Shown: in pieces, positions 1 to 7,478 of the stretch
Position numbering within the stretch: position 1 is the stretch's first letter
Layout: each line of letters starts with the position of its first letter
DNA from: Amoebophrya sp. A120
Lineage: Eukaryota > Protista > Dinoflagellata
Assembly: GCA_905178155.1 (NCBI GenBank)
Contig: CAJINV010000100.1
Span: 1-7,478 of the forward strand
Reading direction: 5' to 3'
DNA: 7,478 nucleotides
Notes under the pieces: generated by a model
What the model was told of the DNA's origin: nothing
What the model saw: only the letters and a program-made list of their open reading frames with translations
Databases searched by the model: none
Position numbers and translations under genes: made by a program

Positions 1-30
1 TTCCAGACCCAGACATATTTGCACTTGATA
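1..30. mobile_element. Right TIR of a family A introner/MITE (partial, continues upstream of the window)
   Basis: TTCCAGACCCAGACATATTTGCACTTGATA matches the family A right end. Confidence 0.9.
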
Positions 31-383
31 CACAACGTCTCTCTGCAAGACTTGGTGAAACTTCTCTCCATCGCGTACTTCCCGTACGAGAGCGACAAGG
101 CACTCCACGCCGCGGTCCAGGATGAATTCACGCAATTTGACCACAGCAGCCCGGAAGTGACGGCCAACAGTACCACTACACAGAGCGGCACGGGTAATCG
201 ACTTCTAAATCAGCCCGAACAGATTTCCTCCCGGTCGCCATCTAAATTGTCGGAAGCGAGCGTGAAAAGCGACAAAACAACAAGCTCATCGACCACGAGC
301 GCGATTTCTGCCAAAACCTTGAATCTCCTCCGCACACCGACGAAGAAAGAGAGAACCCAGGCGCTGCTCCGGTTCCGCGAAGT
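31..383 (+). CDS. ovoA: ovoA exon: N-terminal extension, Ser/Thr-rich linker and start of the OvoA core (HNVSLQDLVKLL...TLNLLRTPTKKERTQALLRFREV)
   Basis: Open frame between two TIR elements; joins in frame to 644 (FREV|LKHQFLQTFNIYERLF). Confidence 0.8.
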
Positions 384-3300
384 TATCAACTGCAAATATG
401 TCTGGGTCTCGAAGAAGGCAAGATTTTTCATCCTCAGCTAGCATGATTCTCAAGTCTGTCATGCACGTTACCCAAGAGCCTCGCTTTTCTGTCATGCGGA
501 AACGCAGTTTGTCATGCAGAATAGACTACAGTCCGACCACATCAGAAACTTGTCATGCTGGAACGGCACTTGCGGCACCCTAATCATTCGCCAAACAGCA
601 TCACAAGTTTCCAGACCCAGACATATTTGCAGTTGATAGAAGTGTTGAAGCACCAATTCCTGCAGACCTTCAACATCTACGAACGGCTTTTCTCCACCAT
701 CGCGACCTATCATTTGTAAAAACGTCCCCACACCAGGGTTGTCATGCAGATTTGCAACGACAGGAACATTTGTGATGCGCATCTCCATGAAAGGTATTTT
801 TAGTCGTGTTTTGGAATTTGTAATGCTGTAACCAGGATAGGCCGATGGATTTGTGATGCGTTTGTCCTTGCTACCCTGCACTTCACTACGAACTCCAACT
901 TGTGATGCGTGAGAACCAAAACTTCTAGGTTTGTGTTGCAAAGTCCCCATCTTGACTCTGTCGTGGGGACGTTTTTCCTTTTGATACGACCCCCGGACTG
1001 TTCTACCGCGCGGAGCGGTTGCGACACCACTTGATTTTCTATCTCGGCCACACTGCGGTTTTTTACTGGAACAAACTGATCTCCGCTGGCTGGGTGTGTG
1101 CGAACCAGCGCTTGCACGAGAAATTTGAAGCGATTTTCGCAGTGGGGGTGGACGAAATGAGCTGGGACGACCTGTTGGAAGATAATTACGACTGGTGCGG
1201 GTTTTCGGTGGAGCAGCAAGAGAACTATCGGAAGGAAGTGGAACAGTACAGGGCTTCCGTGCGGGAAGAGGTGTGTCGCCTGATCGACGAGTACGTGCTG
1301 GAGGAAGATATCACTGTTGGTCGGACGAATCCACGGACTGCACCAGATGAAAACAACACCTCTTTCCTCGCCTTTCAACCGGACGAACGGACTGTGGAAA
1401 AAAAGAACAGCAACATGAAAAAACCACATCAGCTATCAATTGCAAATATGTCTGGGTCTGGAAACTCGTGATGCTAAAATGTGCATGATGGAACAACTTC
1501 CGAATGCAGACCAGCATGACAACTTTCCGAAGCACTTTCTGATATGCTGCCCGCATGAGAAACTGCGTTTTTGCATGACAAAAATGGGTGCGGCTTTTGT
1601 CGGTTATGCAATACAGATTTCCCGGGAATGTAAAGCTAGCATTACAAGTTCCAACTTTCCAGACCCAGACATATTTGCATTTGATATCAGCAAGTGCGCG
1701 ACAACGCGCCACTGTTAAAGGCGACTTGCGGGAAACTCGTGTCGGAGTACATTTTGAAGTATCAAAAGGAAAAATCCCCCCTCCCCATATCAAAACGAAA
1801 TTTCTGATGCTGGATTTGGATACACAAATCAAATTTGTGTTGCAGTAGAGGAATGCACGCAGATCCTGAGCCTAGGCGGGGGCCTTTTGGTGTAGGCGCC
1901 TAGCATAGTAGACGGCTACCTTGTAGGCCGCAGAGCATTACAAATCGCCTGCATAACGTGGCGGCCAGCCTGAGTGTGCCTGCTTGCAAGACAGACCCGA
2001 TTTGTGGTCACAAATCAGCAACACAAATTATCGGAAACATACCTTTTCGATATGGGGAGAGGGGATTTTTCCTTTCGATATAAAGTACTGCACAACTACG
2101 TCCGCTACCAGCAACTTAGGTGGTGGAACCAACAACGCCCCCCTTGCGAAGCAGTTGCAAAATACCATGATCTGGATTCTGCTGATGGGCGCCGAGCACG
2201 AAAAGATCCACCAAGAAACCAGCTGCCCCATCCTGTCCCAGATGCCCTTGCAATACTTGAACAAGACACACCGGTGGCTGTACCCGATGGCAGAAGTCAA
2301 GACAAGTTCGTCCTCTTACTACGAAAGATCCGGCAACCCGCTGGTGCCCGTGAAAATGACGAGCTTGCTGAACACGGAGGATGAAGAACCCGCGGTGCAG
2401 CTCAGGTTCGGGAAAAACCACCTCGAATCGGATTTCTACGGGTGGGACAACGAGTTTGACAGTGAGCAGGCGAGTTTGTTGCCGTTTCAGGTCAGCCAAA
2501 CGCTGGTGTCCAACGCGGAGTTTTTAGAATTTGTGTTGGACGACGGGTACAAAAAAAAGCACTTCTGGACGGAGGAAGGGTGGCGGTTCGTCCAGGACCT
2601 CAACGTGGACCGGCCGCGGTTCTTATGCAAGAAGAAAAGTGTGGAAGTGTGAGTCTGTAATGCATAAGTGCGTACCACAATTATCACTTGTCATGCTAGC
2701 CAGCCACGATGTCCTTTTTTCATGAGTGTTTTTGAGTACTAGCTGCGCATGACAGGATTTCTTTGTCATACAGAGCAAATTTGTCATGCAGTCATGGCAC
2801 AAGACACGTTCACTAAACACAGTTTTTTTCCTTTGGACACTTCTGGCTCGACGCGGATAACGAAGTCGAAATGCAAACCGGCCGACCGTATAAAATGTAA
2901 AAATGTCTGGGCCTGGAAGATTCCCAGGCCTGTCATGCAGATTTTCCATGATCCATGTCGTCTGGAATGCAGGACCTAGCATGACAGGTTCTGTGAGAGT
3001 TCTATCATGCCTATCCGGCATGAGAAACTGCCTCTCACTTAGATCAAAATTGGACAGCTTTTGGCATTCATGCAACACAGATTTTTGCACGATCCAGAAT
3101 TAGCATTACAAGTTGCAACCTTCCAGACCCAGACATATTTGCAGTTCATAGACCGGTGACCAGCAGCGTGACGAAAGCTGAGCTGGACCAGGTTTTACTA
3201 CAACTTGATGGTAAGAACAAAAACCACGAGCAGATGCAAAAGAAACAGGACAAGCACAAAAATTTCGTCTACCGGGCCATGCTCTCCATCATCCCCATGC

Positions 3301-6300
3301 CGTGGGACTGGCCGGCGGAGGTCAACTATGCACTGCAAATCTGTTTGGTGTTCTGGAACAATGCTTAAATTTGTCATGCCTTTCTAGCATGACAACTCTG
3401 AGGTTTCTTATGCCCTCTTGCCTGTCATGCAAAAACGCACTCTCGTCCCAACATGCGGAATTCGCAAAACATCAGAAATTTGTGATGCGTGGCTGCATTT
3501 TCAAGTACGCTCATCAATCGCAGACTTGCATCACAAGTTCGTCCCAGACCTAAACATTTTTGCATTTGATATGAACCAGCTCGAGGCAGCGGCGTTTTGC
3601 AAGTGGAAGGCGGAGAAATTGAGCCAGCCGGATTTGCGACTGCTGGGGCATCCAGAGCAACTGTACCTGGCGCTGCATTGCGAAAAGGGGTTTGGGAAGA
3701 ACGCAAATTTAGCAGGTTTTGCGTCGCCGACCAGCGTGAATGTGCACTATGGGTACAGCAATTGTAGTACACCGTCGGAGGTGGATTCATCATCGTCAAA
3801 TAACCCGAAAGAGAAAAAAACGAAAATCTACGACATTGAGGGGAATGTTTGGCGGCACTCGATCTCCGTACTCACCCTAATGGACGGGTTTCAGCCGCAC
3901 ATTGCCTACGACGATTTTACCCTCCCTACCATTGATGGGGAGCACAACTTTATCGCAAGAAAAACTGTCTCAGTCTCAAAACTTTGCAGACGCAGCAATA
4001 CAAATTTGCCAAGCAAGAAACAAAAAATCTGTGATGCGTTCAAACATCAAGGGATAACACGTAAGGAAGGACGTCTTTCTTGATGCATTTCCGGCATGAC
4101 AAAAAACTGTCTCAAGGAAGTTGCGCATTACAGCTTGAGAGTGAGTAGACTGTGACAGTTTTTTCTCGCGACAAGTTTTATCCTGGGCGGGTCCTGGACC
4201 AGTATTGGAAACTGCGCGAACCCGGGGTCCAGGTACGGGTTCCGCCGGCACTTTTACCAGTACGCAGGGATCCGATTCTGTAGCGACTTCGGCGGGAAAA
4301 ATCTGCCGGTACTTCTTGTTTTTCGTACGAACTTCTCGATGTAAGTTGTAGCCATTTTATACGGAGGACCTTTCGTCCAGTACAACGACCCACATGAGCT
4401 ATTCAAACTATTGTGTTCATAATTCACATTTTTGGGAACGACCGTTTAATTTGATGTTGATCACACGAGACAAAGCAGAAGAAACAACTTTTCACGGTCT
4501 TCTTCCACCTATCCCCTACGAAAAACCTCTCGTGGTCTTGCAATAAAAGGGCGAAATACTAGAAACGAGTCGGTACTAGAGTGGTGAAAGTATATGTGCT
4601 TGTCTCGCGCAAAAATACAGAGGCTTCATTTGTTCGACCTTCTCTCACCAAAAACAGATGATCCACACGTCTGCACCCAAGATCCACGCGGCGACCCCGC
4701 TGGGCGTGAAACTTTCGGAGCACTACTACGAACTGTACGAGAGTCCAAACGCACTGCTGGGGCTGGATCAAGCCTACCTCGAACAGTACTTGCAAAAAGA
4801 TCACAAGCCGGTGTCCAACTGGCCACGGCTCTTCGGCGAGATTGCTAGCTACGTCGTCGATGCGGTGCAGCAAGGGACGAAACAGGATGAAGGAGGACCA
4901 CAGCCAATAAACACGAATAACAACACGGGTTCCCCTATCCTGAGGAAAAACGTCCCCACCCCAGAGTTGTCATGCAGATTTGCAATGACAAGGAAATTTG
5001 TGATGCGCATACCCATGGTAGACATTTCCAATCGTATTTTGGAATTTGTGATGCTGATAACAGGATAAGCAAATGAATCTGTGATGCGGCTGCACTTGCT
5101 AACCTGCACTACACTGCGGAGTGCAACTTGTCATGCGTGACTCCCAAAACTCCTAGGTTTGTGTTGCAAAATCCCCATCCTGACTCTGGTGTGGGGACGT
5201 TTTTGCTCAGGATGTCCCCCCGCCTGAAAGTCCTGGTCGCAAACGGGTCCGTCGGTCGCTGCTCGTTGGATATCACACAGAAAAAAGCAGGCAGGTCAAA
5301 CTTGTAATGCGACAATAAATAGACAAAAAAAATCTGTGTTGCATGTCCTGAACGGCATGCTACGGGGTTGCGCATGACAGATTTTACTGCGTATTCATTT
5401 TTGCATCACAAACATGCCCTGCCTGGTTTTTTCTGTGGGATATTGGAGTTGTTGAAGAAGTGCAAGAAGCTCGACGTGACCCACACGGACCCTATCGAAT
5501 GCAAATATGTCTGGGTCTGGAAGGTCGCAAGACTTGTCATGCAGGTTTTCCATGACAAATGCGGTCTGTCACATATGAACTAGCATGACAGATTCTGCGC
5601 CACCTCTATCATGCATCGTCTGCATGAGAAACTGCCTCTCAACTTGGTCAAAAGTGGGCAGTTGTTGGTAATCACGCAACACAGATTTTTGCACTATCCA
5701 GAATTAGCATGACAAGTTCCAGCGTTCCAGACCCAGACATATTTGCAATGCATAGACCCAACGGCGAATCTGCTCGCCCCGTTACAAGAGCTGTTGGACT
5801 CGGGGAAAGTGCAGTGGCGACAGACGATCGAGGGCGAGATCTGCGACCAAAGGGAGTACTTGCTGATGTCGGACGATAAAAATTCTATCACAGACGACAA
5901 CCATGGCAGCAACAGCAACACCACAAAGTCTTTTTTAGAAAAAAACGACAACACCTGCAATTTGGTTCAGATCCAAGACTACAAAACGTCATTGAACAAG
6001 CTCCCGACGAACCAGACCTTCGACATTTTACTTGCCGATTTCCGCTACACGAACTGCGAAGAAGAGCTAGCTGTTATCGTAAGGAAAAATCCCCCCTCCC
6101 CATCTTGAAAAGAAAATTTGTGATGCTGATTTGTGACCACAAATCAGCTTTGTCTTGCGTACAAGGCAAACGGCACCCATGTGGCGCATTGGAAAGCGAG
6201 TCTGTCATCCGTTTTCGCCTATGGCAGACTTGTTTCCCATGCTCATCTGCTAGCCGGGTGAGTAGTCACATGGGCTCAGAATCTGCCGGCAACCTGTTGC

Positions 6301-7151
6301 TGCAATACAAAGCTCATTTGTGTACACAAATCCAGCAACACAAATTGTCTTTTGAATATGAGGTGGAGCTTTTTTCACTTTGATAGCCGCCCTCGCCTCC
6401 CGCTGCCACGGAGTTCTACTGCTCGCGACGCTGCATATCAAATGCAAATATGTCTGGGTCTGGAAACTTGTGATGCTAAAACGTGGATGATAGAAACAGT
6501 CCCGAATGCAACCCAGCATGACAACTTTCTAGAACGCTTTCTCATAGGAAATCCGCATGAGAAACTGCGTTTTTGTATGTACAAAAGAGGCCGCGACTTT
6601 TGCTGGTTACGCAATACAGATTTCCTAGGTATCGAAAGCAAGCATTACAAGTTCCAACCCTCCAGACCCAGACATATTTGCATTTGATACTGCACAAAGT
6701 CGAGCAGCTCCCCGGGTTCGAAAAGTCGGATTTGCTGGACAGCGTCCGCGCGGAGGCCCTCGGTTTTTTCACCTCCAATGGCGACCGGGAGCCGGAAAGG
6801 ACGAAATCTATCAAATGCAAAAATGTCTGGGTCTGGGAGATCGCGAGACTTGTCATGCTACTCTGGCATGACACTGGAATCTGTGTTGCGTAGCCGCATA
6901 GAGCTCCTCTTCCTTGTCATGCAAAAACGCAGTTTCTCATGCGGAGGACGCAATTCAGAACCACGAAAAAACTTGTCATGCTTGGCAGCGCATTACAGCG
7001 TGCTCGCTATTCCTTTCCTTGCATCACAAGTTTCAAGACCCAGACATATTTGCAATGCATAAAGTCCCATTGGAGACGAATGCGGGCGAAGGGGGTGGCG
7101 CACTTGGAGAAGCAAACGATCCACAAACACCAGTTTTTCCGCAGTTACCTT
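31..7151 (+). CDS. ovoA: OvoA-family 5-histidylcysteine sulfoxide synthase, spliced, 5'- and 3'-partial; 16 exons: 31-383, 644-707, 992-1433, 1692-1759, 2086-2623, 2845-2888, 3156-3326, 3577-3950, 4179-4308, 4658-4935, 5220-5270, 5448-5492, 5760-6074, 6391-6435, 6695-6808, 7067-7151 (junctions can slide within the 5-bp TSDs)
   Basis: Joined exons total 3117 nt (1039 codons) with no stop. OvoA-like motifs appear in the expected order: LRHHLIFYLGHTAVFYWNKL, FEAIFAVGVDEMSWDDL, WILLMGAEHEKIHQETS, YGWDNEF, MPWDWPAEVN|QLEAAAFCKWK, YDIEGNVW, HIAYDDFTLPTIDGEHNF|ILGGSWTSIGN, RYGFRRHFYQYAGIRF, a methyltransferase-like region, and terminal KQTIHKHQ. Several motifs are only complete after the element is removed. 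Confidence 0.92.
384..638. mobile_element. Family A TIR introner, 255 bp, orientation F, TSD GAAGT/GAAGT
   Basis: TIRs TATCAACTGCAAATATGTCTGGGTCT and AGACCCAGACATATTTGCAGTTGATA are a perfect 26-bp pair; TSD at 379-383 and 639-643. Confidence 0.93.
644..707 (+). CDS. ovoA: ovoA exon (LKHQFLQTFNIYERLFSTIAT)
   Basis: Resembles the OvoA N-terminal F..TF..YE.LF helix; bounded by TSDs GAAGT and CGACC; missed by the ORF track. Confidence 0.85.
708..986. mobile_element. Family B TIR introner, 279 bp, TSD CGACC/CGACC
   Basis: Ends TATC..AAAAACGTCCCCAC and GTGGGGACGTTTTT..GATA; ungapped paralogue at 4936-5214. Confidence 0.93.
992..1433 (+). CDS. ovoA: ovoA exon, DinB-like domain (RHHLIFYLGHTAVFYWNKL...GVDEMSWDDL)
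   Basis: Strong OvoA signature; frame of ORF 1019..1471 up to the TIR at 1434. Confidence 0.93.
1434..1686. mobile_element. Family A TIR introner, 253 bp, orientation R, TSD TCAGC/TCAGC
   Basis: Family A TIRs; close paralogue at 6436-6689. Confidence 0.93.
1692..1759 (+). CDS. ovoA: ovoA exon (QVRDNAPLLKATCGKLVSEYILK)
   Basis: Removing the flanking elements with one TSD copy each keeps the frame between the two flanking conserved exons. Confidence 0.75.
1760..2080. mobile_element. Family C TIR introner, 321 bp, TSD TGAAG/TAAAG
   Basis: Ends TATCAAAAGGAAAAATCCCCCCTCCCCATATC and GATATGGGGAGAGGGGATTTTTCCTTTCGATA. Confidence 0.92.
2086..2623 (+). CDS. ovoA: ovoA exon with the HX3HXE non-heme iron motif (HEKIHQE, 2197-2217) and the start of the FGE-sulfatase-like domain (YGWDNEF, LVSNAEFLEFVLDDGY, FWTEEGW)
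   Basis: Frame of ORF 1984..2652; motifs typical of the OvoA/EgtB sulfoxide synthases. Confidence 0.93.
2624..2839. mobile_element. Degenerate TIR introner (family D-like), 216 bp, TSD GTTCT/CTTCT
   Basis: Imperfect ends TATGCAAGAAGAAAAGTGTG and CACAGTTTTTTTCCTTTGGACA; several TGTNATGC motifs; removal restores PRFW. Confidence 0.8.
2845..2888 (+). CDS. ovoA: ovoA micro-exon (WLDADNEVEMQTGRP)
   Basis: Restores the conserved PRFW of the FGE-like domain across the junction. Confidence 0.8.
2889..3150. mobile_element. Family A TIR introner, 262 bp, orientation R, TSD GACCG/GACCG
   Basis: Family A TIRs; same length and internal sequence type as 5493-5754. Confidence 0.92.
3156..3326 (+). CDS. 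ovoA: ovoA exon (...YRAMLSIIPMPWDWPAEVN)
   Basis: MPWDWPxEVN is an OvoA motif. Confidence 0.9.
3327..3571. mobile_element. Family A TIR introner (diverged), 245 bp, orientation F, TSD TCAAC/TGAAC
   Basis: Degenerate family A TIRs; removal restores EVN|QLEA. Confidence 0.9.
3577..3950 (+). CDS. ovoA: ovoA exon (QLEAAAFCKWK...YDIEGNVW...HIAYDDFTLPTIDGEHNF)
   Basis: FGE-sulfatase-like motifs; the Tyr of YDDF (3907-3909) is at the position I recall for the active-site tyrosine. Confidence 0.92.
3951..4173. mobile_element. Family D TIR introner, 223 bp, TSD AACTT/AGTTT
   Basis: Ends TATCGCAAGAAAAACTGTCTCAGTCT and AGACTGTGACAGTTTTTTCTCGCGACA; removal restores HNF|ILGGSW. Confidence 0.88.
4179..4308 (+). 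CDS. ovoA: ovoA exon (ILGGSWTSIGNCANPGSRYGFRRHFYQYAGIRFCSDFGGKNLP)
   Basis: GGSW and RYxFRRHFYQxAGxR close the FGE-like domain in OvoA; missed by the ORF track. Confidence 0.92.
4309..4657 (+). other. Canonical GT-AG spliceosomal intron, 349 bp, phase 0 (alternative in-frame pair 4341-4620)
   Basis: CCG|GTACTT...AAAACAG|ATG; an in-frame TAA at 4342-4344 must be removed; lower GC; no TIR, TSD or TGTNATGC motif. Confidence 0.72.
4658..4935 (+). CDS. ovoA: ovoA exon, linker and start of the methyltransferase domain (LSEHYYELY...VSNWPRLFGEIASY)
   Basis: Follows the AACAG acceptor; VSNWP corresponds to the VxNFP segment before motif I in OvoA. Confidence 0.75.
4936..5214. mobile_element. Family B TIR introner, 279 bp, TSD TCCCC/TCCCC
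   Basis: Ends TATCCTGAGGAAAAACGTCCCCAC and GTGGGGACGTTTTTGCTCAGGATG; about 80% identical to 708-986 by hand count. Confidence 0.93.
5220..7151 (+). CDS. ovoA: ovoA methyltransferase-like domain exons: 5220-5270, 5448-5492, 5760-6074, 6391-6435, 6695-6808, 7067-7151
   Basis: The spliced product reads RLKVLVANGSVGRCSLE|LLKKCKKLDVTHTDP|TANLL...IEGEI...FDILLADF...|LASRCHGVLLLATLH|...|HWRRMRAKGVAHLEKQTIHKHQFFRSYL, collinear with the class I SAM-methyltransferase tail of OvoA (VGRxSxEL, EGE, FDL, GxLIL, ETxRKFQ). Confidence 0.8.
5271..5442. mobile_element. Family E TIR introner, 172 bp, TSD TTGGA/TTGGA
   Basis: Ends TATCACACAGAAAAAAGCAGGCAGG and CCTGCCTGGTTTTTTCTGTGGGATA (23 of 25 complementary). 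Confidence 0.92.
5493..5754. mobile_element. Family A TIR introner, 262 bp, orientation R, TSD GACCC/GACCC
   Basis: Family A TIRs; paralogue of 2889-3150. Confidence 0.93.
6075..6385. mobile_element. Family C TIR introner, 311 bp, inverted relative to 1760-2080, TSD GCTGT/GCCGC
   Basis: Left end TATCGTAAGGAAAAATCCCCCCTCCCCAT; degenerate right end finishing TTTGATA. Confidence 0.88.
6436..6689. mobile_element. Family A TIR introner, 254 bp, orientation R, TSD CTGCA/CTGCA
   Basis: Perfect TIR pair of about 29 bp; paralogue of 1434-1686. Confidence 0.93.
6809..7061. mobile_element. Family A TIR introner, 253 bp, orientation F, TSD AAATC/AAGTC
   Basis: Family A TIRs; internal sequence collinear with 384-638. 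Confidence 0.92.
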
Positions 7152-7398
7152 TATCAAATGCAAATATGTCTGGTTCTGGAAGGGTGTAAGTTGTAATGCT
7201 GCATTTGGATTCCAAAAAAAATCTGTGTTGCAGGAATAGCAAAAGGGGTGCGTTTTTTGCCACGCGGAGGGAGTATTTCTCATGCAGTATGGGCATCAGA
7301 AAGCCGTCACAATATCTGTGACGCTAGGGCATGCATCACAGACATCGCCGGTGATACAAAATGTGCATGACAAACTTCCAGACCCAGACATGTTTGCA
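7152..7398. mobile_element. Family A TIR introner, orientation F, right TIR lacking its last ~7 nt and the second TSD (ACCTT)
   Basis: Left TIR is intact; right TIR TTCCAGACCCAGACATGTTTGCA runs into unrelated sequence AGGTCAGTT. Confidence 0.82.
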
Positions 7399-7478
7399 AG
7401 GTCAGTTCAAATTTCAGTACATAGTTCCTCTCATGCTCCATGTCATAAATGCTTCCCGATAAATCGATGATCTAGTAG

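Follow-up and report, generated by a model that had tools for sequence, protein, structure and literature searches.

Introner elements in a predicted OvoA gene of Amoebophrya sp. A120 are skipped in RNA-like contigs as non-GT-AG introns that end their upstream exon at base 3 or 4 of a 5-bp repeat

The window (the whole stretch of DNA analysed; 7,478 nt, positions 1 to 7,478 of the forward strand of contig CAJINV010000100.1) carries the central part of a predicted OvoA gene, for an antioxidant enzyme of the marine parasite Amoebophrya sp. A120, interrupted by elements with inverted repeats at their ends (TIR) and 5-bp direct repeats around them (TSD). These elements are confirmed to be skipped as non-GT-AG introns. 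In putative RNA contigs each is removed together with one repeat's worth of bases, whereas DNA-like contigs retain it, and repeat base 3 or 4 is the last one before the cut. The element class is already known from A120, with tens of introners per gene (PMC7789003; PMC12130899); the new detail is that mismatched duplications locate the cut. A relaxed spliceosome, working at a fixed offset from the TIRs rather than at GT-AG, is the likely agent of removal.

Elements and gene content

Sixteen elements are present (Table 1), as the original prediction had stated: 14 are complete (172-321 nt), one is represented by its 3' end at positions 1-30, and one starts at 7152. The elements account for ~54% of the window, and introns of every kind for 58%; the original estimate had been about half of the locus. 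In every complete element 11-16 of the first 16 TIR positions are pairable, and the motif TAT-N7-AAA is found in 13/14 5' arms and 11/14 3' arms. The prediction of a 5-bp repeat on each complete element was right about the TIRs, but the TSD copies are exact in only 8/14, with one mismatch in 4/14 and two in 2/14. When the window was scanned without bias for inverted repeats flanked by a 5-bp direct repeat, 11 pairs came out, nine of which are these elements; 20 base shuffles gave 0-1 pairs each. Element pairs within the window are alike at 77-81%, and likeness reaches 88% in another assembly. The summed depth of X1 over elements (up to ~2 × 10^5, against ~42 on exons) indicates that they are multicopy. 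Short, with TIRs and a TSD of fixed length, and multicopy, they have the features of MITEs or non-autonomous TIR DNA transposons. Thirteen of 14 fold better than shuffled sequence (z -2.4 to -11.9). Element density is 2.1 per kb versus 0.9 in comparison loci, the 16 of the window having been counted by hand and those of the comparison loci by a detector.

The ordinary GT-AG intron had been missed by the original prediction, which was otherwise correct in treating the elements as introns. The last element had been placed to end at 7398; this position is no splice site. Its 3' TIR breaks near 7399, it is nearest to E6/E11 in reversed orientation, and its intron extends past the window. The RNA exits at 7150 and re-enters in sequence beyond 7478, in the continuation given by the protein P0001. 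Neither the tail (7390-7478) nor the GT-AG intron is truly matched in the comparison loci. The TIR pattern has 0 matches in the viral contigs collection and 0 in the genome contigs collection, and the Rfam search gave 0 matches at gathering scores.

Table 1. Features of the window, with the joints found in RNA-like contigs (last base before > first base after)
Feature	Position	Strand	TSD	Joint	Remarks
Predicted OvoA (5-histidylcysteine sulfoxide synthase) gene, central part	31..7150	+			From RNA joints, scripted splice and TIGR04344 matches
Element 3' TIR end, cut by window edge	1..30		copy at 31-35		RNA loose end before 31
E1	384..638		GAAGT exact	378>639	
E2	708..986		CGACC exact	702>987	81% like E9
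E3	1434..1686		TCAGC exact	1427>1686	80% like E13
E4	1760..2080		TGAAG/TAAAG	1756>2083	Upstream base 2 in RNA
E5	2624..2839		GTTCT/CTTCT	2619>2841	Upstream base 1 in RNA; most decayed TIRs
E6	2889..3150		GACCG exact	2883>3151	77% like E11
E7	3327..3571		TCAAC/TGAAC	3323>3574	Upstream base 2 in RNA
E8	3951..4173		AACTT/AGTTT	3948>4177	Upstream bases 2 and 3 in RNA
Ordinary GT-AG intron	4309..4657	+		4307>4657	349 nt; without TIR or internal octamer
E9	4936..5214		TCCCC exact	4930>5215	
E10	5271..5442		TTGGA exact	5265>5443	
E11	5493..5754		GACCC exact	5487>5755	
E12	6075..6385		GCTGT/GCCGC	6072>6389	RNA has base 3 upstream, base 5 downstream; four runs
E13	6436..6689		CTGCA exact	6430>6690	
E14	6809..7061		AAATC/AAGTC	6806>7065	Upstream base 3 in RNA
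E15	7152..7478				RNA leaves after TSD base 4 (7150); loose end in X3, X4, X5

The gene has 16 exons in the window and extends past both edges. When the exons are joined by script at the RNA joints they give 1038 codons with no stop, as predicted (1039 codons had been given, with the frame restored on deletion); each of the 15 skipped stretches would bring 1-7 in-frame stops if retained. The OvoA ovothiol synthase protein of Amoebophrya sp. A120 is 100% identical to one exon of the window. Residues 619-1533 of P0001 match the spliced product, 123 window residues being absent from P0001, and the homolog P0002 shows 50% identity across the whole length of the product. Five of the 10 exons scanned match positions 42-443 of the OvoA model TIGR04344 in colinear order, each under the whole-protein cut-off, being fragments. 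The HX3HXE iron motif of OvoA (PMC8433421) is intact as HEKIHQE (spliced residues 347-353). A C-terminal SAM methyltransferase domain (PF13489) lies at P0001 1657-1818, beyond the window. The colinear model matches, the iron motif, an FGE-sulfatase domain and the C-terminal methyltransferase of P0001 are all OvoA-like; the protein differs in its length of ~2000 aa, which includes long inserts of low complexity, and in an additional N-terminal aminotransferase-V-like region encoded upstream of the window. The gene is thus predicted from its sequence to encode an OvoA sulfoxide synthase, and the identity with the A120 protein and the TIGR04344 order sustain the original call of a conserved OvoA gene. 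In Pfam the first exon matched PF21111 below the cut-off (E 0.008), which was taken as noise.

Removal in RNA-like contigs

All 14 complete elements and the GT-AG intron are skipped exactly in X3, X4 and X5 (15/15 joints), which represent one sample, with contig depth 307-336. In X7, a second sample of the same study, 9/15 joints are present. Contigs that skip elements also skip the GT-AG intron. The RNA label of X3, X4, X5 and X7 is a guess, no listed run being on record as RNA; they all belong to a single study, and contigs hide minor splice forms and carry no strand. In X9, an RNA run of raw reads, 41 partial reads matched; they lay on repeats and did not cover the gene. The contigs display the precise removal of element plus one repeat copy that had been foreseen, and neither GT-AG nor GC-AG is available at any RNA-allowed register in any of the 14 elements (0/14), again as predicted; U2-type borders, GT (GC)-AG, are therefore found in 0/14.

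The DNA-like contigs of X1 (depth 39-48) run unbroken across 931-1458, 2052-2767, 3124-4051 and 4103-4964. Exon depth and unique-intron depth are alike (~42), as for single-copy sequence, and none of the RNA joints is among the X1 joints listed (15 of 1215). Excision from DNA, which the original prediction had allowed for, is disfavoured because the DNA-like contigs cross the elements unbroken at single-copy depth.

Position of the cut

Where the direct repeats are exact they hide the true cut; mismatched copies reveal it. TSD mismatches at positions 1-3 appear in RNA with the upstream letter in 7/7 cases (6 elements), and those at position 5 with the downstream letter in 2/2 (E12, and E15 by its 5' side only). 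All 7/7 informative elements agree on a cut after base 3 or 4, to which E12 is pinned by itself. Agreement on any single register under independent random cuts has P=0.049. The E12 joint shares only 1 base and gave one product in 4/4 runs; E15 gave one product in 3 runs.

No TSD of the window differs at position 4, so the choice between bases 3 and 4 draws on indirect evidence; a cut after base 4 is the more probable. This evidence comes from Table S4 of PMC7789003 and from a second, Amoebophrya-like assembly with 287 elements, the statistics of the latter resting on 434 kb of comparison loci. In these related loci the 5-bp TSD is exact in 216/286, other lengths being near chance. Over the 287 elements, mismatches at TSD position 4 (12/131 vs 1/156) and position 5 (10/86 vs 5/201) are concentrated at third codon positions. 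Such crowding was reached in 0 of 20000 permutations, and positions 1-3 do not show it (p=0.13); it favours base 4 because positions 4 and 5 are junction bases only with a base-4 cut. Mismatches at position 4 have G in the upstream copy in 6 cases and never in the downstream one. Deviations of the first TIR base number 1/301 at 5' ends and 8/301 at 3' ends (p=0.038, with the window's elements included); several of the p-values are marginal and drawn from many tests. TSD composition against a codon-matched background showed no clear bias at any of 13 positions tested, and G at TSD positions 4 and 5 (1.23x and 1.19x; p=0.05 and 0.15) gave no clear splice-like preference.

If the cut follows base 4, the intron starts N-T-A-T and therefore keeps only the +2 T of GT. 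With that register the inferred +2 T occurs in 14/14 window elements and 286/287 of the second assembly, and GT-AG borders in 9/287 of the related loci. In Table S4 of PMC7789003 all 9 'predominant' non-canonical pairs of A120 are NT-NN and all 9 of A25 are TT-NN, which favours base 4; these pairs may reflect the placement of ambiguous junctions by the aligner.

Orientation, pairing and branch point

Among 154 family-assigned elements of the second assembly, 79 have the same orientation and 75 the opposite. Selection on TIR pairing as RNA is unsupported overall, and with it a strict RNA stem: TIR mismatches of G-U type and A-C type number 174 vs 156 (p=0.35); with TIR position 3 left out, a subset chosen after the data were viewed, they number 24 vs 9. 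E5 is spliced although folding does not predict that its TIRs pair (P=0.02, z -0.2). The octamer GCA[TA]NACA was rejected as an obligatory branch point: it is missing from the sense strand of E2 and E9 and of 39/287 elements in the second assembly. An A at -7 in the 3' TIR reached only p=0.06 as branch nucleotide (5 vs 14 deviations). E2 can be read CT..AC (GT-AG on the minus strand), which was taken as chance, the open frame being on the plus strand.

Relation to known introns

The elements resemble the A120 introners of Farhat et al. 2021 (PMC7789003), for which 1954 families are published, in the TAT + 7 nt + AAA inverted-repeat motif, 5-bp direct repeats, a length of ~240 nt, non-GT-AG borders and repetition; the gene likewise holds canonical introns too, and protein identity indicates the same strain. 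Non-GT-AG borders have putative RNA contig support in 14/14, inverted repeats of 8-20 nt stand at both ends, and a direct repeat of 3-5 nt overlaps the borders, non-exact copies sharing 3-4 of 5. The link to Amoebophrya introners made in the original prediction holds and is closer than had been assumed, the window encoding an A120 protein and its elements fitting the published motif. In PMC7789003, however, the border position is unknown or variable, with no clear dinucleotide signature, whereas the mismatched repeats of the window narrow the cut to just after base 3 or 4, and T is proposed to be constant at +2. Gozashti et al. 2025 (PMC12130899) describe introners derived from TIR DNA transposons, with tens of introns per A120 gene; in the available part their subject is origin and mobility, not cut position.

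The review PMC11282704 describes two further comparable systems. Introns of Fritillaria borealis are MITE-like, with TIR/TSD, non-canonical borders and efficient removal, but AG-AC and AG-AT dominate there, whereas the A120 window has no dominant dinucleotide pair. In euglenid non-conventional introns a TIR stem joins the ends, the borders have TSD-like repeats and the mechanism is unresolved; they differ in that CAG pairs with CTG at +4..6 and the junction is pyrimidine|purine. The TIRs of the window start TAT, with TAT/ATA from +2, and the junction bases are unconstrained, so the elements fall outside the euglenid definition.

Proposed mechanism and alternatives

Non-autonomous TIR transposons would have inserted with a 5-bp duplication; their anatomy is observed and a transposase is presumed. 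In the putative RNA contigs the element is then gone along with one repeat length of bases, while the DNA-like contigs keep it. The cut follows repeat base 3 or 4, and base 4 is favoured; the intron would in that case start one base ahead of the 5' TIR and end four bases behind the 3' TIR. The +2 T found in normal donor sites may come from the TIR, and the same TIR at both ends would let either orientation work (both orientations are observed, their role is presumed). Catalysis is presumably by a U2/U5/U6 core without U1: A120 keeps 83/89 spliceosomal proteins and has U2, U4, U5 and U6, with no U1 snRNA detected (PMC7789003). A relaxed, U1-less spliceosome that measures from the TIRs is the best guess for the putative catalyst, contig data fitting a spliceosome and another enzyme alike and lariats being invisible in contigs. 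That this machine acts as a ruler and reads no code, cutting 1 base outside the 5' TIR and 4 outside the 3' TIR with only the +2 T being read, is put forward tentatively.

An RNA-level TIR-guided nuclease and ligase outside the spliceosome, or a second spliceosome as for euglenid introns, would use the same fixed offset but is rather unlikely. It would suit the lack of consensus at intron +1 and at the final two bases, the TIR stems joining the ends in 13/14 elements, the use of both orientations and the undetected U1 snRNA, and the TIR introns of euglenids come out as circles, with no lariats (PMC11282704). The +2 T is kept, however, and junction-adjacent bases look constrained, which is spliceosome-like; the G-U test and E5 oppose a strict stem requirement, and Fritillaria TIR/TSD introns are reported to be spliceosomal. 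A loose cut after base 3, 4 or 5, with both copies of positions 4-5 reaching mRNA, is improbable. Translation of both copies would also give third-position crowding at 4 and 5, and splice sites are described as variable relative to the hairpin (Fig. 3 legend, PMC7789003), but E12 and E15 each gave a single product, although contigs would hide minor forms, and the informative elements agree without exception.

The relaxed spliceosome is also preferred to explanations that place the skips outside RNA processing. Elements lost from DNA, or mRNA from an element-free gene copy, would fit the transposon-like TIR/TSD anatomy, and contigs lose rare forms; this is nonetheless very unlikely given the X1 contigs, depths and joints, the joint absence of the GT-AG intron from element-free contigs and a strand-specific register that fits a transcript process. 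Reverse-transcriptase template switching across hairpins between direct repeats is hardly credible. Direct repeats and structure favour this artefact (PMC4176328) and the elements fold strongly, but the dominant contig skips every one of the 14. Each holds in-frame stops, yet conservation of the protein runs through the junctions, and selection at TSD positions tracks the gene strand. A homology-guided jump should presumably keep downstream letters, whereas upstream letters are kept in 7/7; the near-absence of shared bases at the E12 joint and the skipping of weakly folding E5 point the same way. A decaying pseudogene packed with MITEs, which the high element density might suggest and the original prediction had dismissed, is practically negligible as an explanation: the spliced contigs have depth >300 and 1038 stop-free codons, the iron motif is intact and identity to the homolog extends over the full length.

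Implications

About 2/3 of the introns of Amoebophrya are removed without GT-AG or detectable U1 snRNA, by a route left open in PMC7789003 and PMC11282704, and a fixed offset from the insert ends is a testable clue to it. Mismatched repeats provide a simple readout of the cut from existing RNA-seq. The P0001 gene model omits three real exons; a fixed genome-wide offset, if true, would repair such models, predict the ends of excised products and show where to seek the branch point. It would also explain the harmless invasion of exons by such transposons in both orientations. If the cut is measured by a ruler, any insertion with a 5-bp duplication would be an instant perfect intron in either orientation, and many 'variable' splice sites of the genome would be one site seen through random target sequence.

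RNA-like and DNA-like contigs

Elements with terminal inverted repeats (TIRs), lying in both orientations, are present in the DNA-like contigs of the window and exactly absent from the RNA-like contigs. The contigs of X3, X4 and X5, three runs of one sample whose RNA status is a guess, cover the window in pieces without any differing letter and carry 15 joints each; strand is not shown in such contigs and rare forms are dropped. The joints correspond to the 14 complete elements (E1-E14), each removed with one repeat's worth of bases, and to a GT-AG intron. In run X7, made from another sample within that study, 9 of the 15 joints are present, and the raw reads of X9 do not cover the gene. Contigs of X1 (depth 39-48) run unbroken over elements, exon and unique intron are of equal depth, and no RNA joint was found among the 15 joints listed of 1215; X1 behaves like a genomic DNA run. 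The central observation of the original prediction and its reading as a removal at the RNA level are upheld, whereas its second option, excision from DNA, is disfavoured since the X1 contigs keep the elements. Spliced at the RNA joints, the sequence reads through 1038 codons with zero stops; every stretch that is skipped would bring in 1-7 in-frame stops. None of the RNA-allowed registers yields GT-AG or GC-AG borders, in agreement with what had been claimed for all registers within each target duplication. Short exons between neighboring elements (42-45 nt; range noted 42-86 nt) are kept exactly. The TIRs of adjacent elements of the same family could pair mutually and skip such exons, which are nevertheless kept.

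At E15 the RNA departs at 7150 and resumes in off-window sequence matching the next residues of P0001, a public protein of Amoebophrya sp. A120. The E15 intron therefore ends beyond 7478, and not at 7398 as first proposed. Near 7399 the 3' TIR of E15 gives way to unrelated sequence; the 5' cut beside the 5' TIR is still used, with a 3' site outside the window.

Positions of features in the window
Feature	Position	Remark
3' end of fifteenth element	1-30	window start
Contigs of X1 unbroken over elements	931-1458, 2052-2767, 3124-4051, 4103-4964	
Exon matching P0001	2083-2619	100% identity
Short exons kept in RNA (examples)	2841-2883, 5443-5487, 6389-6430	
Octamer copies (example)	3371-3394	
GT-AG intron	4309-4657	
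Sixteenth element (E15)	from 7152	window end

Element anatomy

The complete elements measure 172-321 nt. All 14 described originally stand, but the 5-bp target duplication (TSD) attributed to each is exact in only 8; of the others, 4 differ at a single position and 2 at two positions. When the window was scanned for inverted repeats flanked by 5-bp direct repeats, 11 pairs came up, of which 9 correspond to these elements; 20 base shuffles gave 0-1 pairs each. Families are recognizable (E2/E9, 81%; E3/E13, 80%; E6/E11, 77%), and orientation differs among some elements, E1 and E14 being closer to E3 and E13 when reversed (62-67%) than when read forward (48-56%). The octamer GCA[TA]NACA has 70 copies in 15 window elements, and the 3116 nt of exon and the GT-AG intron contain none; it is present throughout the families, in either orientation and frequently forming hairpins. 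In related loci it is found in 286 of 287 elements, but 39 of the 287 have no sense-strand copy, a result against the octamer as an obligatory branch point. It is possibly a candidate transposase or splicing-factor site. Family members there (154/287 elements assigned) divide 79 versus 75 by orientation.

Related loci

A pattern scan yielded 149 loci with the same element families; together they span 434 kb, and 148 of them share an accession prefix. The one gene tested (3447-4869 of locus L040) has 85-90% identity with a protein from Amoebophrya AT5.2, and the model of that protein continues across two element sites. AT5 introns are reported as 99.98% canonical (PMC7789003); either the AT5.2 sites are empty or annotation missed such introns. 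The predicted protein P0072 (L040, 2937-3797) extends into element DNA at both ends, and chimeric proteins of this kind are likely common for these genomes. A repeat-blind detector, which recovers 11 of the 14 window elements, found 286 elements; the 5-bp repeat is exact in 216, other lengths being near chance. A looser detector returned 353 unique elements; host strand and frame were confident for 288 of these (287 after removal of one duplicate). It found 13 window elements and called all correctly, its codon model having been trained on the window.

Position of the cut

Exact repeats hide the cut, so it can be read only from mismatched TSDs. RNA carries the upstream letter at 7/7 mismatches of TSD positions 1-3 (E4, E5, E7, E8 twice, E12, E14). 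Position 5 of E12 shows the downstream one, and at E15 the RNA leaves after position 4. A cut after base 3 or 4 fits all informative elements. If each cut were placed randomly and independently of the others, the elements would agree on some single register with P=0.049, which makes the evidence for a fixed register modest; both bounds are carried by E12.

In the related loci, mismatches crowd at third codon positions for TSD position 4 (12/131 versus 1/156, p=0.0008) and position 5 (10/86 versus 5/201, p=0.003). No such crowding was detected at positions 1-3 (permutation p=0.13; 287 elements), and positions 4-5 differ from their mirror positions 1-2 (p=0.004). The asymmetry follows the gene strand and so points to selection on the transcript. 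The crowding favors base 4, since positions 4 and 5 are both junction bases only with that cut. A loose cut, with both TSD copies of positions 4-5 translated, also fits, the third-codon pattern being compatible with it. At position 4 mismatches, G stands in the upstream copy in 6 cases and in the downstream copy in none; C/G swaps seem frequent where positions 4-5 are mismatched. Cutting after base 4 places 131/287 introns in phase 0 and 86 and 70 in the others. Phase 0 is usually the commonest intron phase, and its excess weakly supports this cut. With the window elements pooled in, the first TIR base deviates at 1/301 5' ends versus 8/301 3' ends (p=0.038). No clear splice-like bias was seen in TSD base composition of the related-loci elements. 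An intron cut after base 4 would start N-T-A-T; T is second in all 9 predominant A120 pairs of Table S4 of PMC7789003, a table that aligner choice may shape. A cut after TSD base 4 is likely.

Mechanism

By analogy, and given the A120 spliceosome inventory (83/89 proteins; U1 snRNA not detected; PMC7789003), the spliceosome core is probably the catalyst. The TIR would supply the +2 T and a measuring point for the cut. A strict need for an RNA stem is unsupported, because a G-U test was null (174 versus 156, p=0.35) and E5 is spliced although no TIR pairing is predicted for it; 13/14 elements fold better than shuffles (12 each). A non-spliceosomal route like that of euglenids is a possible alternative. 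The review PMC11282704, in the part consulted, treats the removal mechanism as open and covers Fritillaria and euglenid introns. Reverse-transcriptase template switching (PMC4176328, consulted in part), which would create such joints artificially, is disfavored.

Host gene

The OvoA (ovothiol synthase) assignment made originally is confirmed: TIGR04344 matches, in order, from 5 of 10 exons scanned, and the iron motif HX3HXE (defined in PMC8433421) is intact in the spliced product. The homolog P0002 is 50% identical across residues 2-1038. P0001 lacks 123 residues, equal to three exons between 4657 and 5487; these exons are present in the RNA contigs, and P0002 contains them too. The final ~37 residues of P0001 correspond to element DNA seen in many loci, likely a model error. 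Residues 94-620 of P0001, upstream of window position 1, align to the P0005 Aminotran_5 region (29%). The N-terminal part is likely an OvoB-like lyase fused to OvoA; PF00266 gave no match in P0001 and occurs together with OvoA domains in the proteins P0005, P0006, P0008 and P0009. Hydra is given as the only reported OvoB-OvoA fusion in the text seen of PMC8433421.

Relation to published work

The element class is already known in A120 itself. Farhat et al. 2021 (PMC7789003) describe inverted repeats starting TAT + 7 nt + AAA, which window arms fit at 13/14 5' ends and 11/14 3' ends, with direct repeats of 3-5 nt and 65% non-canonical introns; the intron border position is called 'unknown' and 'variable'. 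Tens of introners occur within single A120 genes (PMC12130899). The portions consulted of PMC11453091 and PMC9860276 hold nothing on cut position, and no paper fixing the cut inside the repeat was found in the mainly open-access literature covered, in which PMC7789003 is represented by its text; its Figs 3 and S19-S25 may bear on the point. The present analysis contributes a likely fixed offset of the cut, together with a means of testing that offset across the genome.
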